From assembly GCA_910584815.1 (NCBI GenBank), contig CAJUBT010000008.1, positions 1-57,762 on the forward strand: a stretch of DNA of 57,762 bases, in the 5' to 3' direction. Below are positions 39,497 through 57,762 of the stretch, piece after piece; the stretch's first letter is position 1; every line of letters starts with the position of its first letter. Below the pieces are notes generated by a model, which made no database searches, was not told where the DNA came from, and saw only the letters and a list, made by a program, of their open reading frames with translations. This stretch comes from an uncultured Christensenella sp. (GTDB lineage: Bacteria; Bacillota; Clostridia; Christensenellales; UBA1242). Both the position numbers and the translations under genes were made by a program.

Positions 39497-39557
39497 TTTA
39501 AATTCTCCTTTATTAATTAATTATTTAATATTTTGTAATTATTTAAAAACTTTTTAC

Positions 39558-40106
39558 TTAAATTTTAATAAAGGCATTATAGCCTTTTTTTATAAATTCT
39601 GCTATTTCTTCATCGGCAATGTTAGCCCCTCCTGTTGCCATCATAGTTGCAACACCGTGTGTAAACACAATTAGCATTATATAAACTTCTTTAATTTTTT
39701 CTTGTGAAAGCGAAAGTTTTTCTGCAAGTTCTATGGTCGCTTGCTTATCGCCAATCCATTCATATATGTCGTTAAAACTGTTTAAACCATTTAGTTTTTG
39801 TAAAAACAATAATTTAAATAAATTTGTTTCATATTTAGCAAATGCAACATTGGCATTAGCCATACTTTCTAAAACATCGCCACTACCAATTCGAGAATAT
39901 ATAAATTTATTATAAAACTTCATTGCCTCTTCATAAATTGCTTGTTTTAGCGTTTCCATATTATAAAAATAACTATATATTGGTTGAACAGAGAAACCCA
40001 TTTTAGTTGCAACACTTCTGGCATTAACGGCTTCAAATCCAATATCTCTAACCATTTGTAATGCAACTTTTAAAATTTCTTCCTTATTCACAATTTGCTT
40101 TGGCAT
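39558..40106 (-). CDS. TetR-family transcriptional regulator
   Basis: N-terminal HTH (ALQMVRDIGFEAVNARSVATKMGFSVQPIYSYF). Start taken at MPKQ (AAGGAA RBS), not at the longer ORF start 40142. Confidence 0.8.
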   Translation of the reverse strand: MPKQIVNKEEILKVALQMVRDIGFEAVNARSVATKMGFSVQPIYSYFYNMETLKQAIYEEAMKFYNKFIYSRIGSGDVLESMANANVAFAKYETNLFKLLFLQKLNGLNSFNDIYEWIGDKQATIELAEKLSLSQEKIKEVYIMLIVFTHGVATMMATGGANIADEEIAEFIKKGYNAFIKI

Positions 40107-40518
40107 ATTTAATTCCTTATTATTACATATGTTATATAACAAGCGTTATTTTACAAACATTATTATAAAAAGTCAACATTTTCTTATATAAAAATAAAAT
40201 TAAACTTTTTATAATTAAAGTTTAATAGAGCTAGGCTTCATTTGTTTGACTATAGAATTTTAAACATTAAGTTTACTATAAAACCATTTTACTTTCATTT
40301 AAAAAGTTTAGGGTAGCAGTAAATTAGTATTTTTTAAATTTTAAAAATATAACAAAGATTGGCTAAAATTTAATTTCTTATTTTGTTTTTTATTTTTACT
40401 TTTTAAAAATCATAAATGGTTTAAAGTTTAATATTATTATAAAAAAAATTACATTAAAAATTAAGTTTATAAAAATAAAACGAACCAGTATTTTTAAACA
40501 GGTTCGCTTTATTTTTTA

Positions 40519-40595
40519 TGGTGCACCCTAAGGAGTTCGAATCCCTAACCTTTGGTTCCGTAGACCAACGCTCTATCCAGTTGAGCTAAGGGTGC
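40519..40595 (-). tRNA. tRNA-Arg (anticodon ACG), CCA encoded
   Basis: Reverse complement folds as acceptor GCACCCT/AGGGTGC and anticodon arm TTGGT-CTACGGA-ACCAA, with T loop TTCGAAC-like and 3' CCA. Followed (leftwards) by a GCGAACC/GGTTCG hairpin plus T run. Confidence 0.88.
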
Positions 40596-41154
40596 ATAAA
40601 TAATATTTTTATCAAACTATTGGTTATTGTAATAAAAATAATATAAGAACTTAAAGTAAAGATTTATGTTTTAGTAGTATTATTAATTAAAATTTTTTAA
40701 TGTAATAAAATTTTAAAGGAAATATATCTATAAATTATTATATAGCATAAATTAAGTTATTGCAAATTTTTATTTAGTATATTAATAATTTTAATTAAAT
40801 AACAAACCATAATATAGAAATTTGTTTATAGTTATAAGTTAGGTTAATAGGGAATAATAAAAATAATTGTCTTTAAATTTACAACTAAATTTGTTATAAT
40901 ATATTTATATATCTATTATATAAAACAAAAATTAATAATTCTATTTAAACTCAACCAGTTTATTTTATCATTAAAGTTTTAATAAATCAAGTATCTTTAT
41001 TTATTTTTCTTTGTTCTAAGTTAAAATTGTTATAGGTTGCACAAAAATATATAAAAAACAATAAAAAAATTAAGTTTGCACTTGAATTATTTTATAAAAG
41101 GTGTAGAATAAATACAATTACCAGAGTTTTTTAATAAAAAGGTGGTGTATAAAT

Positions 41155-42639
41155 ATGGTAGATTTAACAACCGCAGTTATTATGGCTGGTGGCAAAGGCA
41201 CAAGGCTTGCTAGTGTAACAGGTGTGTTGCCAAAACCAATGGCTAAAATTAGAAATTTAGAACAAACTGGGCATAGTTTAGATGCAGATGATACTATTCT
41301 AGCGCATCAAATAGATTTATTGTCGCAAGAAGGCATAACAAATTTTATTCTAGTAGTGGGCAATAAAAAAGGCTTCATTCAAGATGCCTTTACAGATGAG
41401 AAAATTAATGAATTATTACCTGATAGAAACATTTCTATTAGGTACTTTGAAGAGCAAGAGCAGAACCCTTTAGGTACAGGGGGCTCTTTTTGTTCTAAAG
41501 ACCTTCAACGAATGATTGGTCAAGATGACTTTTTATTAACTTACGCTGATGTACTGTTTGATATAAATATTCAAGATATGTTTAAGTTCCATAAGCAAGA
41601 AGGTGCAGATGCAACAATGTTAGTTGGTGCTTGTAAGGAACCAGATGATAGAGTTTTGTGTTGCCTAGGTGATGATGGTAGCGAAATTACAAGGCTTATA
41701 CCTAAACAAGGGAAAGGAGAAGCTCCAAGAGGATGTGCATTTCCTAACATTGCAAGGAATGGAATTACAATTTTTAATTCAAGTTTATTTGAAACTTTAC
41801 CACAAGAATGTACTTATATGGATATGGAAACCGACATTTTAACTCCTATGGTATATAATCCTAAATACAAAGTTTGTGCTTGGAAAACTCCTTGTTATGT
41901 AAAAGACATTGGAACAGTTGACAGATACTTTGAAGGAGTTTCAGATTTACAGGAGGGTATTCCTCAAGCTAAAAATCCTGCAAAAACAGAACAGTCTTGC
42001 GTTATATTTAGAGAACAAGATTTAATTAACGATGGAAAGTTAGACATTGATTCCGCAAGGGCAATAGAAGAACTTAACGAAAAGGGTGTTATTGTTGGTT
42101 TACAATGTGTTGAAAAAGTTTTGCCAAAAGAAACAACCATAGGGGAAATGGCAATTGACACCGCTCTTAATCGTCAAGGTAAAGGCGCTTTTGTTAACTT
42201 TAAATTTGGTGAAGAAGACATTGCTCCATTAGTTAAGGCTATGGAAGAATGGAATATTTCTCAGGAAAGAACTTATGTTATAGAAAATGCCATAGGTTAT
42301 GGATATTTAGTTTCCAATTTTTCAAAAGGGGACCAATCTTTTCAATTATCTCCAATTTCTGCTACTTATCAAATTTTACAAACAATAGAAAATCAAAAAA
42401 CTCAACAAGAATTAATGCAACACGATTCGCAAGTGTTTGGAGAACTACAAACTATGTTTGGCATTTCTCAGGAAGATACTACTATGAATACAGAGGAAGT
42501 TACAGATATGCCAGTTGACATTGCAGCTATAGAAAATATTGGAAGAGAACATACTTCATACGGTGAAACAAATGCTGCACAAGATGTTAGACTTATGCAG
42601 TCTGTTCTTCAAGGACCTGTTGAAGATATGAACAAATAA
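41155..42639 (+). CDS. Sugar-phosphate nucleotidyltransferase fused to a ~240-aa C-terminal domain (possibly degenerate HAD-like)
   Basis: 494 aa with AAGGTGG RBS and N-terminal MAGGKGTRL...LPKPM motif. The C-terminal half has no catalytic motif I can recognise. Confidence 0.65.
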   Translation: MVDLTTAVIMAGGKGTRLASVTGVLPKPMAKIRNLEQTGHSLDADDTILAHQIDLLSQEGITNFILVVGNKKGFIQDAFTDEKINELLPDRNISIRYFEEQEQNPLGTGGSFCSKDLQRMIGQDDFLLTYADVLFDINIQDMFKFHKQEGADATMLVGACKEPDDRVLCCLGDDGSEITRLIPKQGKGEAPRGCAFPNIARNGITIFNSSLFETLPQECTYMDMETDILTPMVYNPKYKVCAWKTPCYVKDIGTVDRYFEGVSDLQEGIPQAKNPAKTEQSCVIFREQDLINDGKLDIDSARAIEELNEKGVIVGLQCVEKVLPKETTIGEMAIDTALNRQGKGAFVNFKFGEEDIAPLVKAMEEWNISQERTYVIENAIGYGYLVSNFSKGDQSFQLSPISATYQILQTIENQKTQQELMQHDSQVFGELQTMFGISQEDTTMNTEEVTDMPVDIAAIENIGREHTSYGETNAAQDVRLMQSVLQGPVEDMNK

Positions 42640-42757
42640 TTTTTGTTAAAAATAAAAAAAAGACAAGGCAAAACCGTTTTAAATGTCTTGTTTTTTTATT
42701 TTCTAAATTGTATAATTTTATTATTATTGTTTTATTTTAAAGGGAGAATATATACAA

Positions 42758-43645
42758 ATGATTGATATGCACATTCACACAAAAAATTCAGATGGAATTT
42801 ACAATGTTGCAGAAATTTTAGAAATGGCAGAACAAAAGAAATTAGACTATATTTCGTTTACAGACCACGATAGAGTAAGTGCTTATGAAGAATTAAAAGG
42901 TATTGCAAAAAAAGCAATTTTTTCTGGCAAAATTATTCCTGGATGTGAACTTAGGTTTGTTTACGATAAAACACAATTTGAAGTTTTGTGTTATGGTTAT
43001 GATTATGATAAATTTAGTAAATCTTATTATGTTTCAGTAGATGCCTATATAAACATTAAAAAAGGTATTTTAAAAAATTGTCTTGAAAAGGGTAAACTTC
43101 TTGGGTTTGTATATAATAAAATAGAATTTCACCCAGAAACAAAACCTGAAAAAGATTTTTATATGGAAATTATAAAACACGAAGAAAATTTGCCAATTCT
43201 TCAAAAATATGACATTAAACATTCAGGTGAATTTTTTAGAAAACTTATTGCAAATAAACAAAGCCCAATGTTTTTTGATGCCACCGATTATTCTTTGAGT
43301 TTTGATGATGCTGTGGATTTTGTTCACGAATGTGGTGGAATTGCAGTTTTAGCACATCCATTTGGCGTTTATCAAATAGAAGACCCTAAAAAACTTTTAA
43401 GCGAACTCCTAGCAAAAAATAAATTAGATGGTTTAGAATGCTGTCACGCGGATATTACTACAGAACAAAGCGAGTATCTACTTGATTTATGTAAAAAACA
43501 TAATTTAGTATCTACAGGTGGAAGCGATTTTCACGGTTATCCTGGTCAATCTTTTGCAAAGTGGAACAAAGGCTCAAAAGATATTGAAACTAAATTAATA
43601 GACAAATTCTTAGAAAAAATAGATAAAAGCAAAATAATAGATTAA
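42758..43645 (+). CDS. PHP-domain phosphoesterase
   Basis: 295 aa with AGGGAG RBS. Motifs DMHIHTKNSDG, AHP and GGSDFHG. Confidence 0.8.
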   Translation: MIDMHIHTKNSDGIYNVAEILEMAEQKKLDYISFTDHDRVSAYEELKGIAKKAIFSGKIIPGCELRFVYDKTQFEVLCYGYDYDKFSKSYYVSVDAYINIKKGILKNCLEKGKLLGFVYNKIEFHPETKPEKDFYMEIIKHEENLPILQKYDIKHSGEFFRKLIANKQSPMFFDATDYSLSFDDAVDFVHECGGIAVLAHPFGVYQIEDPKKLLSELLAKNKLDGLECCHADITTEQSEYLLDLCKKHNLVSTGGSDFHGYPGQSFAKWNKGSKDIETKLIDKFLEKIDKSKIID

Positions 43646-43986
43646 CTTATGGTACTTTTTTCTAAAATAAATTTAGTAAAAATAAGTTTATTACATTGTA
43701 ATTAAAATTACATAGAATCATTTAACAGAAATTATTAAAATGCTTTGTGGAATAGAAACTAAAAAATACTAAGAACTTATAAATATAAATAGGTTAAGGT
43801 GTTAATTCTTTAAAAAATAATTATAATTTTTTGCTTCTTTTTAATTTTTAAATTAGTTAAGATTTATGTTAATTTGATTTTTAAACTATTTGTTTATTAT
43901 AACTCAAAACTGCAATCAGTAGAGTGTGCTTGTTTCAATATGTTAGTTACTTTTAAAAAAAATAAATAATAAAGGTTTTTAAATTT

Positions 43987-44433
43987 ATGGTTAAAATTAT
44001 CGTTTTAAGTGATTCTCACGGAAATAAAAAAAATTTAGAAAGTTTACTTGAAACCTCTAACTATAATTATGTTTATTATTTGGGCGATGGTTTAAGGGAT
44101 ATAGAAAACTTTTGTGAAACCAATATTAAAAAAGTTTGTGGCAATTGTGACCATTTTTCAAACGAAGCAGTTACAAGATATGAGAAACTGGAAGGTTTTA
44201 AAATTATGTTAACTCACGGTCACGATTTTAAAAGTAAGTTTACCAAAGCATTAATGTTAGAAAATGCAAAAAATAATGCTTGCGATATTGTATGTTCAGG
44301 GCATACTCATAAACAGGGTATGGAATATATTGATGGTATTTTATTTATAAATGGTGGTGCGTTTAAAAATAATCAATATGCTGTTTTAACTCTACAGCAA
44401 AATCAATCTCCGCAGGTAGAGTTCTTTAATTAA
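43987..44433 (+). CDS. YfcE/MJ0936-family metallophosphoesterase
   Basis: 148 aa with motifs VLSDSHGN, GD, LTHGH, SGHTH. Confidence 0.8.
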   Translation: MVKIIVLSDSHGNKKNLESLLETSNYNYVYYLGDGLRDIENFCETNIKKVCGNCDHFSNEAVTRYEKLEGFKIMLTHGHDFKSKFTKALMLENAKNNACDIVCSGHTHKQGMEYIDGILFINGGAFKNNQYAVLTLQQNQSPQVEFFN

Positions 44434-44440
44434 ATTATTT

Positions 44441-44475
44441 AAAACATATAGCAAAGCCTTGTTATATGTTTTTTT
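44441..44475 (+). terminator. Rho-independent terminator
   Basis: Stem AAAACATATA/TATATGTTTT with 12-nt loop, followed by a T run. Confidence 0.55.
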
Positions 44476-44943
44476 GTTATAGAAAGTTAAACCTTTTCTT
44501 TAAGTAGCTTTTAATGTATTTTATAGTTTTTATTTGTGCATTTAAATATAAATAAAATATTAAATATCTTTTAATTAAATTTGCTTTTTCTATTATGCTT
44601 TTAACCTTTTATTATGTCGTAAATAATTTTAATTAAAAACTACTTTTAAAATTTATTATAATAGAATTACTTTAAAAATGTTTTATTATTAAAAAAATAA
44701 AAATAGTGTTGTTAAACTTAGCAACATTATTTTTTATTATAAAAATTTTAATTTGTTAATTTTACTAATAAACTATTATTCCCATAATTATTAATAAGAA
44801 TAGTTCTTATAAAGTTTACGCATAATAAGAGCAACTCCAATAACATTAAATAATAAATACGAATTTTTCTTATTTATTAAAAATAAAAATTCTAAAATTT
44901 GATAATAATGCGAAACTATATAAAATTATAATAAGGAGAGATT

Positions 44944-45288
44944 ATGAGGCTAAAGGAAATTAGAAAGCAAAAAGGTTTAAAACAAAATAAAGTAGCTCAA
45001 GATTTACAAATTAATGTTGTAACCTATAATGGCTATGAAACTGGGAAAAGCGAACCTAACATTCAAATTATATTAAAACTAGCAGATTATTTTAATGTTA
45101 CAACAGATGAACTTTTAGGGGCTCAAAGCAAACTTCCAACCCTTAGCGAAAAAAGTGCCTTACTTGGAAGAGTAAACCAGTTAACTGAAAACGAATGCCA
45201 CAAATTAAACATTTATGCTGAAGCACTTATGTTTGCAAGAGTTGAACATAAAGACAAAATAAATAAAATTATTAGAGATGAAGAATAA
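44944..45288 (+). CDS. XRE-HTH protein, DGR-adjacent paralog 1
   Basis: 114 aa with AAGGAGAG RBS. N-terminal HTH_3-like region and conserved C-terminal LTENECHKLNIYAEAL. Confidence 0.8.
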   Translation: MRLKEIRKQKGLKQNKVAQDLQINVVTYNGYETGKSEPNIQIILKLADYFNVTTDELLGAQSKLPTLSEKSALLGRVNQLTENECHKLNIYAEALMFARVEHKDKINKIIRDEE

Positions 45289-45608
45289 TGAAACTAAAAG
45301 AAATAAGAAAAAAACTTAAAATAAATCAAGATGAACTTGCAAAGGTTTTAAACACAACGCAGCATACAATTTCTAATTACGAAAACAATAAAACTCAACC
45401 AAGCATAGAAGACATTGTAACTTTAGCAAAGTTTTTAAATGTAACAGCAGATGAGTTGCTTGGAATGAATGTAAATAACGAAAATTTAATTGAAAGAAAC
45501 TTGCTATTCAAAACAATTAATGGCTTAACCGAAAGTGAATGCCATAAGTTAAATATATATGCAGAGGCATTAATAACTGAAAGAGAAATATATAAAGATA
45601 AAATTTAA
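45288..45608 (+). CDS. XRE-HTH protein, DGR-adjacent paralog 2
   Basis: 106 aa. The start overlaps the previous stop (TAATG). Same two-part architecture (LTESECHKLNIYAEAL). Confidence 0.8.
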   Translation: MKLKEIRKKLKINQDELAKVLNTTQHTISNYENNKTQPSIEDIVTLAKFLNVTADELLGMNVNNENLIERNLLFKTINGLTESECHKLNIYAEALITEREIYKDKI

Positions 45609-45630
45609 AAGAAACTAAAGAAGAGATAAA

Positions 45631-45993
45631 ATGAATTTAAAAGAAATACGAAAAAGAAATAAAAAGAATCAGAAAGAAGTTGCAGATTTTTTAAATGTTA
45701 TGCAATCTACCTATAGCGGATATGAAGTTGGTAGGGTGGAAATGACGGGGGAAACAATTATAAAATTATCTAACTATTTTAACGTTACAACCGATGAACT
45801 TTTAGGGGTAAAGAGAGAAGAAAAAACATTAACTCAAAAAAATACCCTTATGAATAAAATTAACAATTTAACAGAAAATGAATGTTATAAATTAAATGTC
45901 TATGCAGATGCTTTAATTATAAACAGAGAAGAACATAAGCAAAAAATTAACAAACTATTAACGGAAGAAAATGAAAAATTAACAAATTTTTAA
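45631..45993 (+). CDS. XRE-HTH protein, DGR-adjacent paralog 3
   Basis: 120 aa with the same architecture (LTENECYKLNVYADAL). Confidence 0.8.
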   Translation: MNLKEIRKRNKKNQKEVADFLNVMQSTYSGYEVGRVEMTGETIIKLSNYFNVTTDELLGVKREEKTLTQKNTLMNKINNLTENECYKLNVYADALIINREEHKQKINKLLTEENEKLTNF

Positions 45994-46063
45994 GCAATTT
46001 TAAAAATTAAATTTTAACCTATAAAAAATTTATAAAATAAATAAACTTGATAAAACCTAAAAT

Positions 46064-46101
46064 AACCCAAAATTTCTAAACAATTTCTGGGTTGTTTTTT
46101 T
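46064..46101 (+). terminator. Terminator-like hairpin between HTH triplet and RT
   Basis: AACCCA...TGGGTT imperfect stem followed by T7 (46095-46101). Confidence 0.45.
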
Positions 46102-46167
46102 ATTTAATTAAACAAAATTTAAATATTAAATTGGAATATAATCAATAAAGTTGTATATTAAAAATAT

Positions 46168-47316
46168 ATGATAGAAAACCGTTTCAACGAAGTTTTTAGT
46201 TTTGAAAATTTATATAAAGCCCACCTAAAAGCAAGGCTTTCTAAAAGAGATAAAAAAAGCATTGTAAAATACGAAATGGAATTAATTAGTAATTTGTATG
46301 ACCTATATAAAAAAATTCAAAATGGAACTTATAATATAGGTGTTTATAGCAAATTTATTGTTTACGAACCCAAAAAAAGACAAATTCAAACTTTGAATTA
46401 TTACGACCGAATTGTTCAGCACGTTTTATGTGATAATTTACTTATGCCTTATTTTACAAAGCGTGCTGTTTTAGATAATTGTGTTTGCCAAGTTGGGAAA
46501 GGCACTCACTTTGCCCACGACCGATTAAAAGCAAATTTGCATAAATTAATTAAAAAAAATTCTAATGACATTTGGTGCTTAAAGTGCGACATAAAAAAAT
46601 ATTTTCCAAGTTTGCCCCATAAAAATTTAGTTGAAACTTTTTGCAAGCATATTAGAGATGTTAACTTAAAAAATATGGTGGCGCAGATTATTGATAGTTT
46701 TCATACCAGTGAGGTTTTTCTTAAAAAACATAACATTTCACCACTTGGTTTAACAAAAACAGAAAGGGGGATTCCTATTGGCAACCAAACCAGCCAAGTT
46801 TTTGGAATGTTTTACTTAAATAGTTTAGACCGTTTAGTTAAGGAAAAATTAAGGATAAAAGTTTACAGCAGATATATGGACGATTTTTTGTTGTTTAGTG
46901 AAAGTAAAGAAAAATTAACATATGCTTTTAAACATATTAAGGAACATATTAAAAATATAGGTTTACAATTAAATTCTAAAACTCAAATGTTTCCGTTAAA
47001 AAATGGATTTAATTATTTGGGTTTTAATTATTCAGTTACCAAAACTGGTAAAATTTTAAAAACAATAACAACAAAAACTCGTAGAAGAATGAAATGGAGA
47101 GTTAGATACCTTAAAAAACTATATGAAGCAAAGCTAATTAATTCTGAACGGGTTGAAAGGTCGTTAGTTGCTTTTCACGGCCATTTGTGCCACGCAAAAT
47201 GTTGGTACTTAGAAAACAAACTGAGAAATGGGCTAAAACCAATGTTGCCGAAAGAAGTTTTTGAACGAGCAATAAAAAGTAAGAAAAAGAAAACTAAAGC
47301 AGTTATGTTAAAATAA
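46168..47316 (+). CDS. DGR reverse transcriptase
   Basis: 382 aa. Has the DGR-diagnostic motif 4 IPIGNQTSQVFGMFYLN (SQ rather than SP) and catalytic YMDDF. Also FENLYKAH...KRDKK, YEPKKRQI and DRIVQHVL. There is no SD. A promoter-like TTGGAA-17-TATATT ends 8 nt before the ATG. Confidence 0.9.
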   Translation: MIENRFNEVFSFENLYKAHLKARLSKRDKKSIVKYEMELISNLYDLYKKIQNGTYNIGVYSKFIVYEPKKRQIQTLNYYDRIVQHVLCDNLLMPYFTKRAVLDNCVCQVGKGTHFAHDRLKANLHKLIKKNSNDIWCLKCDIKKYFPSLPHKNLVETFCKHIRDVNLKNMVAQIIDSFHTSEVFLKKHNISPLGLTKTERGIPIGNQTSQVFGMFYLNSLDRLVKEKLRIKVYSRYMDDFLLFSESKEKLTYAFKHIKEHIKNIGLQLNSKTQMFPLKNGFNYLGFNYSVTKTGKILKTITTKTRRRMKWRVRYLKKLYEAKLINSERVERSLVAFHGHLCHAKCWYLENKLRNGLKPMLPKEVFERAIKSKKKKTKAVMLK

Positions 47317-47393
47317 AATATTAAAAAAATATTAAGTAAGAGAAGAATAAAAAAGCCAAGCATAATTATAAAAAGGGAAATGAATAGGTGACA

Positions 47394-47473
47394 ATGTGCT
47401 GTTAAATTTTAAACTATTAAAATTTAATGCAAAATTAAAATTTTGCCTAAAACCTTTGGTTTTAGCAGCACAT
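47394..47473 (+). other. Structured RT-avd intergenic element
   Basis: A 13-bp closing helix ATGTGCTGTTAAA/TTTAGCAGCACAT has one U-G wobble that is valid only on the + strand. It encloses the hairpin GCAAAAT-TAAA-ATTTTGC. Confidence 0.35.
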
Positions 47474-47522
47474 AACTGCCAACAACTAACCACTAATTAC
47501 ATAAGATAAGGAGAATAAATAA

Positions 47523-47921
47523 ATGGATGAAAATAGGGTTGCAAGAACATTAATATCTCACGATAAAAGCAAAGATATGGCTGTGTTCACCCACGCCAAA
47601 AAATTAAGCGAATATATTTTTGTTATAACCGAAAAATCTCCTAAAAAATTAAGATGGAGTATTATAACAAGAATGCAAAACATATCGGTTGAAATTATAG
47701 AAAACCTATACCGTGCAAACTTAGAAAGGGGAGAACTTAGGGTAGAATATCAAAAGCGTGCCTATGTTAATGTGCAATTGCTAGACTATTATGCCTCTAC
47801 CGCAAAAACAATGCAAGCAATAAACAATCACCAAATGTTAGTGCTTGGCAAGAGCTTGCTAGATGTTAAAAAATTGTTACTAGGTTGGGTTAAAGCAACT
47901 AAAAATAACCTTTCAACCTAG
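47523..47921 (+). CDS. avd: Avd-like accessory variability determinant (four-helix-bundle, 23S rRNA IVS protein family)
   Basis: 132 aa with AAGGAGA RBS, basic and helical. The pattern F.HAKKLSEYIFVITEK.PKK.R.SI..RMQN.S.EI.EN..RAN is typical of Avd. Lies adjacent to the RT. Confidence 0.8.
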   Translation: MDENRVARTLISHDKSKDMAVFTHAKKLSEYIFVITEKSPKKLRWSIITRMQNISVEIIENLYRANLERGELRVEYQKRAYVNVQLLDYYASTAKTMQAINNHQMLVLGKSLLDVKKLLLGWVKATKNNLST

Positions 47922-48168
47922 TTGAGAACTTAATATATAATATATTATATATAATAACTATATAATAATATATCCTATTTATATAAACCTATTTATATAA
48001 ACCTGTTAGTAATTAAGTTTGTTGGTTTATTGTTAAACTTATTTTAAAATAAATTTTTAAATAAGTTTGCTGAGTTTTGTTGTAAAAATTTTATATATAT
48101 GTTTGCTTGTTTTTTTTTTAAGATAGTTAAATTAACTTATTGCTTTTTTTTTAAAAAATTTTAAATAT

Positions 48169-48201
48169 TGTGCTATAAACTTAAATAGCACAAATTTTTT
48201 A
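48169..48201 (+). terminator. Terminator after avd
   Basis: 9-bp stem TTGTGCTAT/ATAGCACAA with 8-nt loop, then ATTTTTT. Confidence 0.55.
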
Positions 48202-48251
48202 TGTGCCAAAAAAACAAAACAAACCTACAAAACAATGTTTTGTTAAAATTA

Positions 48252-48475
48252 CCTTAAAGCCTCACCGCACCGCCGAAACTTAAAAAAACAAAATTTTATT
48301 TTTTTAGGCTTTTTGCTTGCTAATGCCTCAAAACAAAATTTAAAATTTTTGCGTTGTGACAAGATGAGGCCACATTCACCCTCGCCATATTCTGTTGGCA
48401 ATTAGGTAGGATAGAAACCCCTTCACCACAAATCAATATCGGCTTAACTGTTATAAATAGTTAAGAACAGGAATT
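48252..48475 (-). ncRNA. Structured RNA island 1 (3' of TR-1 in the TR sense)
   Basis: GC-enriched block in an AT-rich spacer. Conserved core AGGTAGGATAGAAACCCCTTCACCACAAATCAATATCGGCTTAAC. Helices GCCTCA(48259)/TGAGGC(48365) and CTTAACT(48443)/AGTTAAG(48459). Confidence 0.5.
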
Positions 48476-48783
48476 TAACACTTTTAACATTGTTGTTGGT
48501 TTATAAAAAAAGTTTGCTCCTATATTTTATAGTTTTAAAACCATATGTAAAGTTTTTAAATCTGTAAACTTTTTTTGCCTTTTATAAACTTAAAACCATA
48601 AAAACTTAAAATATATTTTATTTAAAAATTTAAAAGTTTGTTTTTATAAACATACTTTTTTTAAAATATTCAAATTTTAAAATTTTTATAATGCTTTTAA
48701 ATTTAAAACTTTTAAAGACTTGTTAAAAAATAAAAAGCAAATTAGGAACCATATTTTTTTAAACCTTAACAAATAAAAAGGCG

Positions 48784-48904
48784 GTGAAGCGCGGGACGAA
48801 CGGCGTTAGAATTGTGAACGTTGTTATTACTCCAATCAGCGCCAGAAGGGTTGAGTATATACGCATTGTTAGCATTATTGTTGTTGCCAGACCGCAACCA
48901 CGAA
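48784..48904 (-). repeat. DGR template repeat TR-1 (intact, no cognate VR in window)
   Basis: 121 nt with the same 18-nt and 22-nt end blocks as the VR. 12 in-frame AAY codons and no stop. Differs from TR-2 at 17 internal positions. Confidence 0.75.
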
Positions 48905-49338
48905 AGAAAGAGAAAAAGGCCCCGACCTAATTACAAGGTTTTTACCCCTTAATATAAAACTATCATAAAACTTTAAATTATGTAAAACATAATAGTTTTA
49001 TTTTTTTTGATTATAAAATAAATTTTTAAAATTTGTTTTGAATTGTTCAGCTTTTTTAGTTTTTTATTGTTTTTTTAAAAAAATGCTTTTACAAAAAAAC
49101 TAATTAAAAACAAATGCAAAACAATTTAAAAAACTTAGCCTTAGCATTATATAAAACTTTTTTTAAATTTTTTTATTTATAAAAAACACAAAATTTAAAA
49201 TAAAAAAAGGTTTAATTAACAATTTAAAGCATTTTTTAAATGCACATAAAAGGTTTAGCAAAAAAAAATTAAAAGCCTTTAACCTTTATGCTTTTTTATT
49301 TTTAAATTTGCTTAAAGTTTTAAAAAAACTGAATAAAA

Positions 49339-49565
49339 AAAGCCCTACCGCACCACCACCTTAGTTACTAAAAAAAATTATTAATTTTTTTAGTAAGGGC
49401 TTTTGCTCACACCCCAAAACAAAATTAACTTTTGTGTTGGAGTAAGGTAAGGCAATATTCACCCACGCCACATTTATTTTTTGTTGGCAAGCAGGTAGGA
49501 CAAAAATCCCTTCACCACAAATCAACTTCGGCTTAACTGGTGTTAATAGTTAAGAACAGGAAAAA
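49339..49565 (-). ncRNA. Structured RNA island 2 (3' of TR-2 in the TR sense)
   Basis: Same core as island 1. Helix GCCCTACC(49342)/GGTAAGGC(49446) is C:A on the + strand but U:G on the - strand. Hairpins at 49414-49440 and 49532-49554. On the - strand the last helix is followed by U7. Confidence 0.55.
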
Positions 49566-49743
49566 CCCTTTTAATGCACCATTTAAAAATAAACTAGGTT
49601 TTTTTTAGGCTTTAAAACTTAAAAGTTTTGTTAAGTTTTTAACCGCTAGCACAAGCACTTAAACTTGTTTAAAAATTTTTGCAATAAAAAACTTAAAACA
49701 AAAAAAGTTAGTTGCCATAAAATAAACCTACACATTAAAAGGT

Positions 49744-49864
49744 GGTGAAGCGCGGGACGAACGGCGTTAGTATTGTTGACATTATTATTACCGTTACTAG
49801 CGCCAGAAGAATTGAGATTGTAAGCATTGTTAGCATTATTGTTGTTGCCAGACCGCAACCACGA
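49744..49864 (-). repeat. DGR template repeat TR-2 (cognate of VR 53016-53136)
   Basis: Its reverse complement aligns gap-free with the VR. 18 mismatches, 17 of them at TR adenines. 15 in-frame AAY codons. Confidence 0.9.
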
Positions 49865-50283
49865 AAGAAAGAGAAAAAAGACTCCAGCCCAAAATACAGA
49901 TTTCTGCCCCTTATTAAAACTTTATCACAAAACTTTAACCTTTAGCAAATGTTAAACCTTAAGTTTTAACTGTTTAATAAAAGCTTTTAAAAATAATCTT
50001 CGTTTAAATTTGCAAAAGTTTGGTTTTTTATACCTTAGCTTTTAAATTAAAAAACTGTGTTCAAAAAATGTAATTTAAAAAAGGGTTTAAGGTTTTAAAA
50101 AAACAAACCCCAACTTAAAACAAATAAAAACTATTTTTTTAAAACAACAACATAAGTTTGTAATTTTTTTAAAAACAACTTTTAAATTGTAAATTTTGGT
50201 TAAAACATTTTTTAAAAAATATAATAAAAAGTGTTTTTTATAACTTAAAAATTTTTTGGCATTTTTTAAGCTTTAAATAAAAA

Positions 50284-50552
50284 AAAGCCCTACCACAAAA
50301 AAGGCTTTAAAAAAAAATTTTAAGATTTTTTTGTAAATAACTTAAAACAAAAAAATAATTTTGCGTTAAGTTAAGGTAGGGCAACCTTCACCCTTCTTTT
50401 AATTTAAAAATTGTTTTTTAAAAAACCTTTTTTTTAAATTTTGCTTTTTATTAAAACAAACCAAATTAAAAGTGGCGGGTAGGATAAAAACCCCTTCACC
50501 ACAAAATCTAATCGGCTTAACAAACATTTTTTATGTTTTGTTAAGAGCAGGA
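50284..50552 (-). ncRNA. Structured RNA island 3 (divergent, with ~90-nt AT-rich insertion)
   Basis: Perfect helix GCCCTACC(50287)/GGTAGGGC(50375), extended 12-bp CTTAAC.../...GTTAAG hairpin (50516-50545), and conserved GGTAGGATAAAAACCCCTTCACCAC. Confidence 0.45.
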
Positions 50553-50831
50553 AAATAACTGCCTTTTAAAATTTTACTAAATTGTGGCTTGCGGCAAATT
50601 TTTTAAACTTGCTTTGTTTTTTAATTAATAAAATTAAAAATTAATTGTTTTAAATTCCATTTTAAAACTGGAGTTTTGTGGCAACTAACTTTTTTTGTTA
50701 AGCCCTTTTAATTGCTTTAAAATGCAAATTTGTTAAGGCTAAAACCTTAGTTAAAACAACACAACTTGTCAACTAAATTTTTTTTAAAAAAAACAAGCCT
50801 GTAAAAAAAGCAAACCTAAACTTTAAAAGGT

Positions 50832-50950
50832 GGTGAAGCGCGGGACGAACGGCGCTAAACGCACTGCAGCAAAACACCCTAAGAAAGTGCGCCAGAAGAA
50901 AAACAAAAAGCGTGGCGGGAAGCCTACTAGCAGCCAGACCGCAACCACGA
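50832..50950 (-). repeat. Degenerate TR/VR-like copy 3 (adenine-poor, indels, in-frame stops)
   Basis: 119 nt. Both end blocks are identical to TR-1, TR-2 and the VR. The central 79 nt have only 7 sense-strand adenines, several TAG codons and a length difference of -2. Confidence 0.7.
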
Positions 50951-51938
50951 AAGAGAAAAGGAGAGAAAAAAGCCCGAAACTTAATTTATGATTTTTACCC
51001 TTAACTTTAACTTACCACACCTTAAAAACCTTAAACAATTTAAAGGCAATAAAATGTTTAAGATATTTACAACTTAAATAAATTTAAACTTTTTTATTAA
51101 AAACTCAACTGTTTTAATTTTTTTAAAAAACAAATTTAAATGCTATTTTTAAAAAATAATTTTAAACCAAATTTTAAAAACAAAAAATTTTAACTTTAAT
51201 TTGCTTTAAAAACAAAAATTAAATTTTAATGCTAAAAAATAAAAGTTAAACTTAAACAAAGTTCCTTTAAGCAATTCTAGATATTTTTTAATTAAATGCT
51301 AAAAATTAAAATCTCCTATTTTTTGCTTTTTAATTTAATAAGTTATAAAGTTTATAAACCTATTTTTAATGCTTTTATAACAATTTAAAAATTTGCCTTT
51401 GTTTTGTTTAAAAACTAAATTTTGTTAAAGGTGCAAAAAACTTTTTTTGCAAACTTAGGCTATAATTTATTATTTTAAAATATTTATAAAATAAATAAAA
51501 TAAGCCCAAAAAGGCAAAAAATGTTGGTAAATATTAAAAAAACTATCTATTTTTGTTGTAATTTTGCTTTAATTTATTTATAATTAACAATGTAAAATAT
51601 CCAAAATTTGCCAATTTTAAACTTTGTTGCTTATAAAGGGTTTTTTTAAATTTTAAAACAATTAAAATTAAAACTTTTAATTTAAAAATTTAATTTTATT
51701 TTAAAAAGCAATTTAAAAGTTTTTAAACTTAGTTCTTTTTAAATTAATTTTAAAATTTTTTGTTAAAGTTTAATTCCTTACTTTTAGTTTAGTTTTAATT
51801 GCTTGTTTAAGAAAGTTGCTTTTGCTGCAACAAGTTTAACAGTTTTTAGTTTAGTGCTAACTAACTAAACCCATAAATTTTACAAATTTAATAAATGATA
51901 GGATAAATTTTTTATAAAAAACTAAGGAAGGATTTAAT

Positions 51939-54900
51939 ATGAAAAAGTTATTTTTGAGTATAAGCACTTTTTTTGTTTTTACGCTTTTAACATTAAGCGT
52001 TTTTTTTGTTGACTTTAAACCAGATATGGCTAAAGCCTTTAATTCCGAAAACACTACCACCGCAGTTAAGGTAGATGAAATTTGGAACGACACCGCAAAA
52101 AAATTTGATGATGATAACCTAACAAAACTTTTGCAGTTTGTTACAGGCAGCAACACTGTTAGAACAAACAACCTAAGCACCGTTAAAACACAGGCAACCA
52201 ACAAAAAAACAGCCAGTGCAATTAGGGGCACAGCAGTAACTGCCAGCACCGATGGTGCAGTTAAAACTGCAAGTAAAGATATTATTGTAACATTAGGCGG
52301 GTTAGACTGGACCCCTGTATATTTAAGTAACGATACCTCCTCAAACCCAATTTTAACCTTATGGCTAGCAAACTCTAGCCAACTTAATGGCAAAAAATAC
52401 TACACAAGTAACACAGCATCTTCTTCCTTTGGTTCAAGTGGCTCAGCAATGTGGAATAGTGGTTTTACCCCTTGGACAACAAGTGCAGATGGGAATACTT
52501 ACTATTATAACGATTCTGCAACTCCTGCTTCATCCTATCCAGACAATATGTATGGTATGAGTGCAATAAGAAGCACCGTTTTAAACAATGGAGGTTCTTA
52601 TTCAACTGCACATATGGGTAAAAGCACCGCTACTATGAGTAAAAAGAGCGATAGTGTTTTTAGCAAATTCACAGTAACCACTTCAAATTCCACTGCCATT
52701 GCAGACTATTTAACTGTGCCAACAAATGTTTCTTGGCAAAAAAGTGGGCAAAATTTATCAAAAACTTGGTTTAGTTACCAAGCACCAAGTGAAGATTTGC
52801 AAACTGGCGTAAACACCTCTACTGCAGGTTATTATACAACAACATCTTATGTTTCTAATGGGCAAACTGCAAGTATGAATTATACAAGTAGAAGCAATTA
52901 CACTCAATGGAGTAACGATCGTTTATGGCTTCCTTCAGTTACAGAGACGGGCTACGATGACACACATATAGGCATTTGGAGCACTACAACTGAACAAAGG
53001 TCGAACACGCAGTGGTCGTGGTTGCGGTCTGGCTACTACTATCCTGCTAGCAGTGCTTACCATCTCCTTTCTTCTGGCGCTAGGTACGGTTTTAATATTG
53101 TCAGCAGTACTTACGCCGTTCGTCCCGCGCTTCACCTTAATCTAAACTCGGCTGCGGCGAACACAATTAGTGCTATAGACATTAACACTTGCGTGGTTTC
53201 AAACTTAAGCAATAGTCAATGGAACCCAGTAAGCAACCCAATTCCAACCTTCACACTTAAAACCCCAGATGGTAAAACAACATTAACTAAAGATACCGAC
53301 TATACTGTAACTTCTTCTTCAACCAGTGCACCTGGCACTATAACTTTAACAATCAAGGGGAAGAGCAGTAAATATGAAGGCACAAAAACTGTAACCTATC
53401 AACTTGAAAAAAGAAGCATAACCCGTGCGTTGAGAGACAACACCTTGAGTGTTGCCAACCAAACTTGGACGGGTGAAAACCTCACGCCCGCGTTAAGCGG
53501 GCTGAAAGACTACGCCTATAATGCCGACACTGGTGGCAGCAAACTTAGCACAACAGGCGTAGCCTTAACCCAAAACACACACTACACCCTTAGTTACACA
53601 AACAACAAAAACATAGGCACTGCAACCATAACAATAACTGGGGCAGGCAACTACACTGGTTCAACAAGTGTTAACTTTAACATTGTTGCTGTGGATATGA
53701 GTTTAATTACGGTAGATGCCGTTGAAGATAGAATTTGGAACCCAGTAAGTAACCCAATTCCAGAAATTGTGGCAAGATACACAGGTGCAAACAAAACCTT
53801 AACCACCGCCGACTATACTGTTACAAGCTCTGCAAAAACCGATGGCACTGCTGTGCCTGGCGAGGTTACTTTAACCATAACAGGTAAAGGCAACTACACT
53901 GGCACAAAAACTGTTAAATATATGTTAAACCGCCGAGACATTGGCTTGGCATTAATGGGTAACACCCTTACTGTTGCCAACCAAACTTGGACAGGAGAAC
54001 GAATTGAACCTGTTTTAACAGGCTTAAAAGACTATGGTTACCAAACCTTAACAAGCCAAACTCCGCTAAGCCCAACAGGCGTTCCTTTAACCTACAACAC
54101 TCATTATGTGTTAAACTATACTAATAACATAGACCTTGGCACTGCAACTGTAACAATAACAGGCAATGGGGTTTACTACACTGGCACAACCTCAACTGCC
54201 TTTACCATTGTTGCGCGCAGCATTGCCGATGGCACATTAAGTTTAAACCAAACTAATTTAGACTATAATTTTGGTGAAGATTTACTTCCAAGCCTTGTTG
54301 CAACCTTAGAGGTTAACAACAAAACTTTAACCACAAGAGATTACGACCTTTCTTACTATTCTCCAACAGGCAGTGCTGTTACAAAAATAACCGATGCAGG
54401 CACCTACAAAGTTAGGGCAACAGGCAAAGGCAATTATACAAGTGCAAAGGAAATTAATTTTGTTGTAAGCAAACTTGCATTGCGTGAAGAATTTTTTACA
54501 ATTAGCCCAAGCAGTTACGAATATAAAAATTCTCAAATAATTCCTACCTATACTGCAAGCTACACCTACACTGCTGGCAAAACCTATAATTTTAGACCTA
54601 CCGATTTTTCTGTAACCTATGGTGAAAATGTTAACGCTTCAACAGGCGGAACAGTAACTTTTACAGGTGCAGGCAGTAATTTTGAAGGCACTGTAATTAA
54701 AAAATTTACAATCACAGCAAAAAGCATTAGTGCAGGCGACATTACAAAACCAACAATTCCAAGCCAAACCTACACAGGCAGTGCAATAACTCCAAGTTTT
54801 ACATTAACCGATGCAACTCTTGGGCGTGCCTTAGTTAAGGATGCCGACTACACTGTAACCTTTACAAACAATGTTAATGTTGGCGAAAGCAGTGCTGTTG

Positions 54901-57762
54901 TTAAAGTTACAGGCATAGGCAACTATGCTGGCGAAACTGCATTAAGTTTTGAAATTACTCCAAGAAGCATTACTCTTGTTAATATTGCCGAAATTCCAGA
55001 CCAATCTTTTACAGGGTTAGAAATTACACCTGTGCTTAACATAACCGATAATGGTGCAAGTTTAATTAAAGATACTCACTACACTGTAACCTTTGCAAAC
55101 AACATAACAGTTACAAACAGTTCCATTAAAGCAAGTGCAACTCTTGTTGGGGTTGGTAACTACGAAGGCACAACAGTTGTTTATTTTAACATTATTCCTG
55201 TTAACATTAGTGGGGCAATATTTAGCCTTGGCAGAACTTTAATTACTGGTTTTAACTACGAGGAAGATTTTTTAAGTGAAATTCAAGAAAATGCAACTTT
55301 AAAAATTAACACAACCGTTTTACAAAAAAATGTAGACTATAAAATTAGTGCCTTGAATGCCGACAAATCTGCCGAAATTGGCAACATTGTTAACATTGGC
55401 AAATACATTATTCGTGCAACTGGTTTAGGTAACTTTATTGGCACAAACGAAATTGAATTTGAAGTTACAAAAAGAGATATTTCTCAAGATGACATTGAAA
55501 TTGAATTAGACAGCAAAAACAACGATTTTACATATAATGGTGAAAGCCACGAAGCAACAATTAAAGTTTTTGGTAACTACACAATTAAAGGCGTGCAAAA
55601 ACGCAGCGAACTTGTTGAAAACCGCGATTATACAGTTAGTTACGATGAAAACACAAACGCTTCAACCTCTGCCCGTGTGTTAATAACTGGTATTGGCAAC
55701 TTTACAAGCGTTAAAACTAAAAACTTTACAATTAAAGCAAAAATGCTAGATGGGTTAGACATTGTTTTGGAAAATGATATTCCTAACCAAGATTATACTG
55801 GCACAACTCTTTCTCCAACCTTTGTAATTAAAGATAATACTCTTAACCTAGTTTTAGCACAAGGCACTCATTATAGTGCTACTTATACAAACAACACCAA
55901 TGCTGGAGAGGCAACTATAACGCTTACAGGTATTGGCAACTATGGCGGAACAAAGGTTTTACACTTTAACATTTTACCAAGAGATATTTCTCTTGCAACA
56001 ATTTTAGAAATTCCAGACCAAGTTTACACATCTTCTAACATAGAACCTGTTTTAACAGTAACCGATAATGGCAGAAATTTGGTTAGAGGGGTAGACTATT
56101 TAGCAACCTTTAAAAACAACATAAATGTTGGGCCTGCAGGCAGTGCTCAAATAACCATTAATGGTATTAATAACTATCAAGGCAAAAAGGATGCTGTGTT
56201 CACAATTCTCCCTGCCGACCTTGCCGATGCCAGATTGGAACTTTCTCCTGCAAGCAGTGTTTACACTGGCAAAAGTGCAGTTACTTCCATAAGGGTTATT
56301 ATGAACGAAAACAACGCTGTTGTGGCAGACAAGAACTACCAAATAACCTATTTAAAGGGCAGTCAGGTTTTAAGTGGCATAGAGGACCTTGTTGATGTTG
56401 GAACTTACACAATAAGAATTTCAGGTCAATCTAACTACGAAGGCACCATTCAAGAAAATTTTGTTATCACTCCTTGCAATATGCAAGATGTTTCTGTGTT
56501 GCTTTCAAGTTCAAGTTTTGTGTATAACCAAAGTTCACAAACCCCAGTTGTAACCTTAAGTTACAATGGTTTAACATTAACAAGTGGCACAGACTATATT
56601 TTAACCTATCGCCAAACAAATGAAAGTGGGGCTACAGTTACTCATCCAACAGATGTTGGCACATATGCAATTATTTTAGAAGGTAAAGGTAACTATCAAA
56701 AAACCAATTCAAGTTTAAGTTTTGAAATTACTCCTGCAAGTTTAAACAAAGGTGCAGTTGCAACATTCTCTTCTGACCCAGCAACCGCAAACATAACCTT
56801 TGATAACAGCACTCACAAAATAATTCTTTCTAGCCTTAAAATTAATAATGTAGAATTCTTCAGTGGTTTTGAGGGCGAATATGCAACCGTTTCTTACCTA
56901 AGAGAAAACGAAGAAACCACAAACTTTATCAATGCAGGAACAATAACAATTAAAATTTCTGCAGTAGAAGGTAACAGTAATGTAATTGGCGAAAAAACTT
57001 ATACCTACGAAATTAAGCGTAAAAATTTAGCAACTGCAGACAGCAATAAGCAACTTTTAATTACAGGTATAGAAAACAAAGTTTACAACAGAAATGCACA
57101 CACTCAAAATGTTGTTATCAACGATACCGTTGCAGATTATGCTTTAACAAGTAACGATTTTTCAGTAACCTATTCAACCAGCTGTATTAATGCCGAAGAA
57201 GACATTGTAATTTACATAAATTCAAATGCTTCTGGTAACTATAGCGGAACAATAACAAGAACCTTTAACATTGAAAAAGCAATTGTAAACAATTTTGTTC
57301 TTTTATCTACTGGTGCAGTTTATTCTGCAAGGCCACAAGTTATAGAAGTAGAAGTTAGGGCAGGCAACATTGAACTTACACCTAGTGAATATAAGTTAGA
57401 ATATAAAAGAAACAATATTGTAACAGAAGACATTACTAACATTGGCGATATTTCTGTTGGGCTTATAATTGTAAGCACAAACTTTAAAATTGAAACTCCA
57501 ATTGCAAGTCAGAATTACACAATTTCTAAAATTACAATAGATAGTGTTACTCTTACAAACAATAATGTTGGCTATAATGGTGAAACTTATGTTATAGATA
57601 TTTCTAGCGTTGTTGGTGAAGGCGGAGTTGTTTTAAAAACAACCGATTATATTGTTTCCTACACCGATAAAGATAACAACGCATTAACAAATAACGAAGT
57701 TGTTAAGGCAGGGGTATACACAGTAAAAGTAACAGGTGTAGGCAATGCACAAGGTAGCAAAA
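51939..57762 (+). CDS. DGR target: giant surface protein (partial, >1941 aa) with N-terminal variable ligand-binding domain and tandem Ig-like repeats
   Basis: ATG at 51939 with AAGGAAGG RBS and signal/TM MKKLFLSISTFFVFTLLTLSVFF. The frame is open to the window end, which is why it is missing from the ORF track. The VR encodes SWLRSG...AVRPALHL at aa 360-400. After that come repeats of type ..YTG..I.P......G..L..DTDYTVTY.NN.N.GTATV.ITG.GNY.GT....F.I. Confidence 0.85.
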   Translation, partial: MKKLFLSISTFFVFTLLTLSVFFVDFKPDMAKAFNSENTTTAVKVDEIWNDTAKKFDDDNLTKLLQFVTGSNTVRTNNLSTVKTQATNKKTASAIRGTAVTASTDGAVKTASKDIIVTLGGLDWTPVYLSNDTSSNPILTLWLANSSQLNGKKYYTSNTASSSFGSSGSAMWNSGFTPWTTSADGNTYYYNDSATPASSYPDNMYGMSAIRSTVLNNGGSYSTAHMGKSTATMSKKSDSVFSKFTVTTSNSTAIADYLTVPTNVSWQKSGQNLSKTWFSYQAPSEDLQTGVNTSTAGYYTTTSYVSNGQTASMNYTSRSNYTQWSNDRLWLPSVTETGYDDTHIGIWSTTTEQRSNTQWSWLRSGYYYPASSAYHLLSSGARYGFNIVSSTYAVRPALHLNLNSAAANTISAIDINTCVVSNLSNSQWNPVSNPIPTFTLKTPDGKTTLTKDTDYTVTSSSTSAPGTITLTIKGKSSKYEGTKTVTYQLEKRSITRALRDNTLSVANQTWTGENLTPALSGLKDYAYNADTGGSKLSTTGVALTQNTHYTLSYTNNKNIGTATITITGAGNYTGSTSVNFNIVAVDMSLITVDAVEDRIWNPVSNPIPEIVARYTGANKTLTTADYTVTSSAKTDGTAVPGEVTLTITGKGNYTGTKTVKYMLNRRDIGLALMGNTLTVANQTWTGERIEPVLTGLKDYGYQTLTSQTPLSPTGVPLTYNTHYVLNYTNNIDLGTATVTITGNGVYYTGTTSTAFTIVARSIADGTLSLNQTNLDYNFGEDLLPSLVATLEVNNKTLTTRDYDLSYYSPTGSAVTKITDAGTYKVRATGKGNYTSAKEINFVVSKLALREEFFTISPSSYEYKNSQIIPTYTASYTYTAGKTYNFRPTDFSVTYGENVNASTGGTVTFTGAGSNFEGTVIKKFTITAKSISAGDITKPTIPSQTYTGSAITPSFTLTDATLGRALVKDADYTVTFTNNVNVGESSAVVKVTGIGNYAGETALSFEITPRSITLVNIAEIPDQSFTGLEITPVLNITDNGASLIKDTHYTVTFANNITVTNSSIKASATLVGVGNYEGTTVVYFNIIPVNISGAIFSLGRTLITGFNYEEDFLSEIQENATLKINTTVLQKNVDYKISALNADKSAEIGNIVNIGKYIIRATGLGNFIGTNEIEFEVTKRDISQDDIEIELDSKNNDFTYNGESHEATIKVFGNYTIKGVQKRSELVENRDYTVSYDENTNASTSARVLITGIGNFTSVKTKNFTIKAKMLDGLDIVLENDIPNQDYTGTTLSPTFVIKDNTLNLVLAQGTHYSATYTNNTNAGEATITLTGIGNYGGTKVLHFNILPRDISLATILEIPDQVYTSSNIEPVLTVTDNGRNLVRGVDYLATFKNNINVGPAGSAQITINGINNYQGKKDAVFTILPADLADARLELSPASSVYTGKSAVTSIRVIMNENNAVVADKNYQITYLKGSQVLSGIEDLVDVGTYTIRISGQSNYEGTIQENFVITPCNMQDVSVLLSSSSFVYNQSSQTPVVTLSYNGLTLTSGTDYILTYRQTNESGATVTHPTDVGTYAIILEGKGNYQKTNSSLSFEITPASLNKGAVATFSSDPATANITFDNSTHKIILSSLKINNVEFFSGFEGEYATVSYLRENEETTNFINAGTITIKISAVEGNSNVIGEKTYTYEIKRKNLATADSNKQLLITGIENKVYNRNAHTQNVVINDTVADYALTSNDFSVTYSTSCINAEEDIVIYINSNASGNYSGTITRTFNIEKAIVNNFVLLSTGAVYSARPQVIEVEVRAGNIELTPSEYKLEYKRNNIVTEDITNIGDISVGLIIVSTNFKIETPIASQNYTISKITIDSVTLTNNNVGYNGETYVIDISSVVGEGGVVLKTTDYIVSYTDKDNNALTNNEVVKAGVYTVKVTGVGNAQGSK
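53016..53136 (+). repeat. DGR variable repeat (VR)
   Basis: In frame with the target CDS. Identical to the TRs at 18 nt on the 5' side and 22 nt on the 3' side. Internal differences from TR-2 are almost exclusively at template adenines. Confidence 0.9.
53166..54224 (+). repeat. Internal tandem duplication of a two-domain (~175-180 aa) unit in the target gene
   Basis: Units 53166-53705 and 53706-54224 share DNA-level blocks (e.g. GGAACCCAGTAAG.AACCCAATTCCA; GTTGCCAACCAAACTTGGAC) and colinear protein sequence. Confidence 0.6.

Follow-up and report, generated by a model that had tools for sequence, protein, structure and literature searches.

Diversity-generating retroelements (DGRs) are systems that deliberately mutate one gene. 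In the usual view, such a system samples no other variants than those allowed by the adenines of a single template, the variable region being fixed at all remaining bases. The chromosomal DGR considered here raises the question of what a second intact template does beside a single reverse transcriptase (RT), when its ends are those of the template matching the variable repeat (VR) of the target gene and many of its internal bases disagree with that repeat. A first-pass annotation of the window, i.e. the whole stretch of 57,762 nt analysed from an uncultured Christensenella sp. of the gut, had offered two possibilities for this second template (TR-1), namely that it serves a separate, paralogous VR or that one and the same VR is open to rewriting from both templates. 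As detailed below, comparison of assemblies from the same species answers in favour of the latter, and the best explanation of the locus, to which a probability of about 0.8 is given, is a DGR whose RT and accessory variability determinant (Avd) work with several alternative template cassettes, arranged in an array, for one VR.

Layout of the locus

The DGR occupies positions 46168-57762 of the window, which has a G+C content of 28% and is otherwise a usual stretch of bacterial chromosome with glycogen genes, giant surface proteins and tRNAs. The RT gene (46168-47316, plus strand) encodes a protein of 382 aa matching the Pfam domain RVT_1 (E=2.2e-20); its translation exhibits the DGR-type IGNQTSQ motif and YMDD, both kept across the RT alignment, and 3337 homologues were retrieved at E<=1e-30, those that carry a name being annotated as RNA-directed DNA polymerase, mostly from Clostridia MAGs. 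Further 3', a bAvd-like accessory variability determinant of 132 aa is encoded at 47523-47921 (plus strand; Pfam PF22296 bAvd, E=7.9e-10) with a score of 39.6 bits, slightly below the curated cut-off of 40; a bAvd gene is also found 3' of the RT gene in the related loci L032, L039 and L042, where it scores above this cut-off. The following ~4 kb 3' of the bAvd gene are devoid of any ORF of at least 80 aa. Immediately upstream of the RT gene lie three tandem paralogous XRE/HTH_3 regulator genes (44944-45993, plus strand), the number of which equals that of the template cassettes; HTH regulators are absent beside the related arrays of L032, L039 and L042.

The target, a surface-protein gene (51939-57762, plus strand), runs off the window, which contains its 5' 1941 codons. 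The encoded protein displays a signal-peptide-like N-terminus, a DUF6273-like variable domain ending in ...SWLRSG...AVRPALHLNL and then long MBG-like repeats; its homologues carry PF19789 (DUF6273), and the full-length orthologous target, found in assembly L027, has 3446 aa and a single VR. The VR lies at 53016-53136 (plus strand), i.e. codons 360-400 of the target gene. The AlphaFold model of the target has a pLDDT of 78.8, reaching about 90 over the VR, and a Foldseek comparison with the PDB gave weak matches to C-type lectins, all with E>2 (the Lcl C-terminal domain, langerin and snake-venom lectins). Regarding residues 1-430 (51939-53228), the top structural match is the IgA peptidase of Thomasclavelia ramosa (9qa6), again weak (E=0.013, TM 0.27).

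Template copies and their common ends

An 18-nt 5' block (TCGTGGTTGCGGTCTGGC) and a GC-rich 22-nt 3' block (GCCGTTCGTCCCGCGCTTCACC) are each present in the window in four copies with 0 mismatches, as compared with a mean of 0.00-0.01 matches in dinucleotide shuffles. The four carriers are TR-1, TR-2 and a third copy, C3, on the minus strand, and the VR on the plus strand; no further copy of either block and no other VR was found within the window. The one RT of the region is accompanied by several TR copies, TR-1, TR-2 and the degenerate C3 being comprised inside 2.2 kb.

TR-1 is located at 48783-48903 (minus strand), one base off the 48784-48904 originally assigned to it. The remainder of its initial description stood, since it is a real, intact template of 121 nt with the end blocks of TR-2, 12 in-frame AAY codons, a total of 31 adenines and no stop (translation SWLRSGNNNNANNAYILNPSGADWSNNNVHNSNAVRPALH), and it differs from TR-2 (49744-49864, minus strand) at exactly 17 positions. 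Seven codons differ in meaning between the two templates and six more differences are synonymous, which, together with cassette flanks only about 80% identical, indicates that the cassette duplication is old. In terms of protein scaffold, TR-1 specifies Pro at codon 19 (Pro378), a fixed Trp at codon 24 (Trp383) and a fixed Ser at codon 32 (Ser391), and TR-2 specifies Ser at codon 19 (Ser378), a fully variable AAC at codon 24 (residue 383) and a fixed Gly at codon 25 (Gly384). Because codons 19 and 24 have no reachable residue in common, the two repertoires, of about 10^17.8 proteins for TR-1 and 10^20 for TR-2, are disjoint.

The third copy, of which the first-pass annotation made no mention when reporting TR-1, is of a different nature. 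C3 (50832-50950, minus strand, 119 nt) is a degenerate, adenine-depleted template copy with intact end blocks, the composition of which (A=8, C=35, G=33, T=44) corresponds to 57% G+C in a genome of 28% G+C, and it contains several stops and a 2-nt length difference. As to whether it arose as an adenine-mutagenized copy of TR-1 or TR-2, a gapped alignment with these templates shows 71% of the non-adenine positions kept, against 62% +/- 5% in shuffles. Between assemblies, C3 is nearly invariant (two A/G differences and one 1-nt insertion) and, without VR-like variation, it is not being diversified and is not an active recipient. Most likely, C3 is a dead template, or fossil, acting neither as a working template nor as a recipient.

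Architecture of the cassettes

The three template copies belong to tandem units of ~1 kb, located between avd and the target gene and spaced by 961 and 1088 nt from start to start. These cassettes are read on the minus strand, where the adenines match the variable positions. Each of them comprises a TGnTAnnnT/-35-like site ~60 nt upstream, a pyrimidine-rich leader of ~50 nt and the template, followed by a short conserved stretch, an AT-rich linker and a conserved domain of ~190 nt. In cassette 1, the leader and promoter-like site cover 48904-48986 (minus strand), with TTTACA, 16 nt and GATAGT at 48986-48959. From the promoter scan and the cassette alignment, TGnTAnnnT is conserved across the three cassettes, and these sites may function as promoters; over the region, the count of promoter-like sites is not above shuffle expectation.

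On the 3' side, the cassette alignment and RNAalifold delineate in each cassette a conserved structured domain with a terminator-like stem, at 48235-48485 in cassette 1, 49325-49572 in cassette 2 and 50275-50560 in cassette 3, all on the minus strand. The consensus of this domain has 57 pairs, 10 of which show compensatory changes; such changes are seen in the long closing stem (GCCUCAUC/GGUGAGGC vs. GCCUUACC/GGUAGGGC), after which cassettes 2 and 3 show a T run and cassette 1 a weaker one (GGCTTTAAGG), and the domain contains an invariant CUUAAC/GUUAAG hairpin. The cassettes have no Rfam match at gathering or E-value thresholds, and no sequence conservation of the 3' structured domain was found outside this species, the related loci L032, L039, L042 and L033 included. 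Judged on sequence and predicted structure, the cassettes look like three independent small RNA genes, opposite in direction to the RT, Avd and target genes, each of which would be transcribed separately. A pairing of the CUUCACC at the 3' end of the TR with a GGUGAAG of the 3' domain was also considered and was not retained, as its duplex energies do not surpass those of shuffles (fractions at least as good of 0.16, 0.04 and 0.27).

Templates at the origin of the VR

The VR of the window shows 18 mismatches with TR-2, 17 of which fall at template adenines, as opposed to 33 with TR-1, 14 of which are at non-adenines. This VR was therefore written from TR-2 and not from TR-1, and the initial view that TR-1 lacks a cognate VR in the window was right. 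The picture changes with L001 (GCA_948523695.1, 17.8 kb), a contig spanning window positions 38633-56461 and carrying TR-1, TR-2 and C3 identical to the window copies. Over these 17.8 kb, L001 and the window differ at 44 positions, 34 of them in the 121-nt VR and 10 outside, with no difference in the cassette array and none in the remaining target gene. The L001 VR has 21 mismatches with TR-1, 20 of which are at adenines, and 12 non-adenine conflicts with TR-2; besides, it equals TR-1 at all the diagnostic non-adenine positions (GCG, CCT, G.T TGG, GTT CAC and TCT), which is the very haplotype that the first-pass annotation had proposed to look for, here found across assemblies. Both templates have written the VR within one strain lineage holding both cassettes and, since the window and L001 combine identical cassettes with opposite VR types, at least one switch took place after both cassettes existed.

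Two more assemblies, obtained through the protein search, point in the same direction. The VR of L027 (GCA_948542185.1) departs from TR-1 at 16 positions and that of L028 (GCA_948752055.1) at 17, in both cases exclusively at adenines (16/16 and 17/17), and their adenine-substitution patterns differ, so that they represent separate mutagenic events. Four assemblies provide four VR haplotypes, one of TR-2 type in the window and three of TR-1 type, and TR-1 thus wrote the same VR on at least three separate occasions. The idea that either template overwrites the same VR is supported by the TR-1-type VRs of L001, L027 and L028, and TR-1 probably functions as an alternative template for it.

The sole non-adenine change from template to VR in the window is a T to G at 53084 (VR position 69), and the sole one in L001 is a T to G at L001:14457 (VR position 75). 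Both convert AGT to AGG directly 5' of an adenine pair and may represent a context-dependent RT error.

Distribution of the templates among strains

The RT protein is encoded on 12 other contigs. TR-1 is present in every assembly whose contig reaches the array, at full length in L001, L002 and L004-L007 and as parts of 90 and 110 nt in L008 and L029, and its sequence is the same throughout bar one A-to-T change in L004. The latter affects a template adenine at window position 48852 (codon 18, AAC to TAC) and may reflect a rare case of mutagenesis acting on the template. TR-2 was seen only in the window, L001 and L002, with an identical sequence. In a lineage of 98% identity (L005-L007, aligned to window positions 45491-51612), the TR-2 cassette is missing and the order is TR-1, upstream flank of cassette 2 and C3, the join falling in a stretch of ~55 nt common to the 5' ends of TR-1 and TR-2; this absence reflects either a recombination deletion across this stretch or an assembly collapse there, L005 and L006 being low-coverage assemblies (about 3.5-3.8x according to the record names). 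Given this lineage without the TR-2 cassette, TR-2 may have joined the array recently instead of having long accompanied TR-1. Altogether, the templates remain constant between assemblies while the VR changes.

Template arrays in related DGRs

Relatives were sought in metagenome contigs by RT-homologue alignment and then checked for extra template-like copies. Template arrays were confined to the closest relatives, the RTs of which are 51-54% identical (L032, L039, L042 and L033). These uncharacterized metagenomic loci resemble the present system in having, in this order, an RT, a bAvd, several templates with common ends and a target of DUF6273 type, whose VR lies in the middle of the gene and ends in AVRPALH. 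The layout of the window recurs in L039 (Ga0209064_1000013), with RT and Avd genes on one strand, four inverted template-like copies on the opposite one and the target gene next; the copy nearest the target, which it adjoins, is truncated and in that respect degenerate, as is C3. L032 (Ga0137308_100001) differs in having, after RT and bAvd, three co-oriented templates with common ends, 200-280 nt apart, followed by the target, and L042 (OFGE01000024.1) in having templates on both sides of the target, one upstream and two inverted downstream. In L033, two tandem template copies precede the contig end, and L037 and L041 possess one template each.

The VRs of two of these relatives are mosaics of two or three templates. 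In L032, the VR (12292-12416) joins the 5' part of template c2 to the 3' part of c3 with 0 non-adenine mismatches. In L042, the VR (12552-12676) is a tB-tA-tC mosaic, also with 0 non-adenine mismatches, where the best single template requires 8. An unseen mosaic template, or gene conversion among the templates, could however generate the same patterns.

More distant viral DGRs were scanned as well; of the 73 in which a TR/VR pair could be detected, none has an extra template-like copy, and only 1/73 has more than one TR, in that case two TRs with two VRs. Set against the several arrays in close relatives, the 0/73 implies that arrays are rare overall and recurrent in this RT clade; the initial statement that one RT rarely serves several TRs consequently holds in general but not inside this clade. 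In a scan of genome contigs for the 3' block, the present species was not among the matches, and the sole related match came from a sister species (L023, 75% identity), which has one VR with a different scaffold, and a scan of metagenome contigs for both end blocks returned 0 matches. The nearest RT relative, L031 (65% identical), is organised differently and yielded no TR at the settings used. Many palindromic repeats of ~58 nt (GTCATGCTGAACGCAGTGAAGCATC...) lie between its target, RT and Avd genes (L031:9388-11417) and resemble miniature mobile elements.

Probable template switching and alternative explanations

In the favoured explanation, each cassette would be its own small non-coding RNA gene, made of promoter-like site, leader, 121-nt template, linker, 3' domain and terminator-like stem, and adenine-mutagenized cDNA from TR-1 or TR-2 would home into the same single VR. 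Either template can do so because the 18-nt 5' and 22-nt 3' blocks are common to both and to the VR. Homing would also transfer the non-adenine bases of the template and hence change which residues are fixed. Successive homing from different templates would swap 3'-anchored segments of different length and produce mosaics, a later and shorter event from another template replacing the VR on its 3' side alone. Homing is known to be anchored at the 3' end, and an identity of at least 8 bp between cDNA and VR suffices for 5' integration (PMC3240598), which would explain the internal crossover points. Switching may be ongoing and adaptive. Against this explanation, only four VR haplotypes are available and the use of TR-2 is seen only in the window; besides, no feature marking the VR as recipient as opposed to the templates was found, the 3' block being identical and no hairpin being present downstream of the VR.

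A one-off turnover would be an alternative history, in which TR-1 is ancestral, TR-2 a newer duplicate, and the two VR types the outcome of a single replacement, TR-1 being maybe silent in the strain of the window. The strain distribution, with TR-1 in every array-reaching assembly and TR-2 only in the window, L001 and L002, agrees with it, as do TR-1-type VRs in 3/4 assemblies, including one of a divergent lineage. Yet L001 and the window exhibit opposite VR types with both cassettes identical and only 10 differences outside the VR, TR-1 keeps all of its 12 AAY codons together with intact cassette elements, and the mosaic VRs of L032 and L042 suggest that several templates are used repeatedly, so that a one-off event appears rather unlikely. 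That TR-1 mainly serves a paralogous VR at another genomic site or in a later part of the target gene, as first envisaged, is no longer needed and is very unlikely: apart from the lack of another end-block copy in the window and the single VR of the full-length orthologue, no second close target paralogue of the same species emerged from the protein search, in which the same-species matches were restricted to the P0001/P0055 cluster (83% identical to the query) and the other matches were at most 39% identical, and TR-1 wrote the present VR in three assemblies. The proposal drew its plausibility from the remote targets known in other DGRs (PMC5758913).

It is least probable of all that the VR types were exchanged between strains by homologous recombination, with one template used per strain. 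Gut strains do recombine and the identical end blocks are possible anchors; the exchanged tract would nevertheless need the exact limits of the 121-nt repeat, without flanking differences in the target gene, the differences between VR and template fall at adenines with very few exceptions, the hallmark of RT-mediated homing, and both recipient strains hold the matching template. Beyond template switching as such, the array could also be conceived as a regulated combinatorial cassette library, where the choice of RNA would set the scaffold, partial homing would build mosaics and C3 would be an 'off' template, the whole forming two tiers, with shuffling of cassettes added to hypermutation. The three XRE-type regulators upstream of the RT gene could then control the choice of cassette, and C3, with its perfect homing ends, stops and frameshift, would reversibly knock out the surface protein; this extension is speculative and, on balance, unlikely.

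Comparison with known systems

In the prototype DGR of the Bordetella phage BPP-1, avd and brt flank a single template that has their orientation. The array described here, with three inverted and seemingly self-contained cassettes instead of one template, departs from this arrangement, and its VR is situated at about codon 360 in a gene some 3400 codons long rather than at the C-terminus. The likeness to BPP-1 lies in an RT with an Avd, adenine-specific mutagenesis, copying of TR to VR, homing anchored at the GC-rich 3' end and 5' integration by short identity (Guo et al., 2011; PMC3240598). The IMH and IMH* of BPP-1 differ from one another, whereas the VR, TR-1, TR-2 and C3 have one and the same 22-nt 3' block here, and the similarity stops abruptly right after CTTCACC. 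BPP-1 also features a hairpin/cruciform that is GC-rich, has a GRNA loop and is positioned 4-34 bp downstream of the VR (PMC3240598). No such hairpin was found downstream of the present VR, where the DNA fold of 53105-53215 has an energy of -10.1 kcal/mol (z = 0.19 vs. shuffles), and no conserved inverted repeat was found in the VR flanks among the window, L027, L028 and L023.

DGRs with more than one template near one RT are reported in surveys and are, to that extent, similar. Such surveys however either pair each TR with its own VRs or regard a VR matched by two TRs as a case of overlapping predictions that needs cleaning, whereas here one and the same VR is of TR-2 type in the window and of TR-1 type in L001, L027 and L028. 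In the literature searched, which included few subscription journals, neither alternative templates rewriting one VR nor mosaic VRs are described. What appears to be new, as supported by the comparisons above, is template-cassette switching, with mosaics in relatives, on top of adenine mutagenesis.

Silent donors with conserved ends, copied entirely or partly into one expressed site to yield mosaics, are otherwise characteristic of pilS/pilE in Neisseria, vls in Borrelia and the chicken immunoglobulin pseudo-V genes. These gene-conversion cassette systems rely on DNA recombination, with no RNA intermediate, reverse transcriptase or adenine mutagenesis, and the resemblance to the present array is thus an analogy of function and not membership. 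The array would amount to cassette gene conversion as carried out by a retroelement, with hypermutation on top. By virtue of common homing ends, it would lift the one-template limit on DGRs, toggling fixed Trp, Pro, Gly and Ser residues as well as variable codons, and the mosaic VRs of relatives suggest that templates are also combined. This is of relevance for annotation, since a second template is merged or dropped by the DGR pipelines now in use, and for directed evolution by means of DGRs, in which several templates could deliberately be aimed at one target.

Other genes of the window

Away from the DGR, two neighbouring giant genes at 2616-13369 (plus strand) encode proteins of 1576 and 2008 aa with CarboxypepD_reg-like and MBG (YGX-type) repeats, which are probably surface adhesins. 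The GxGNYxG repeats of the DGR target resemble the MBG (YGX-type) repeats of these two proteins. A gene of the zeta-toxin family is located at 30626-31720 (minus strand; PF06414, E=2.5e-30).
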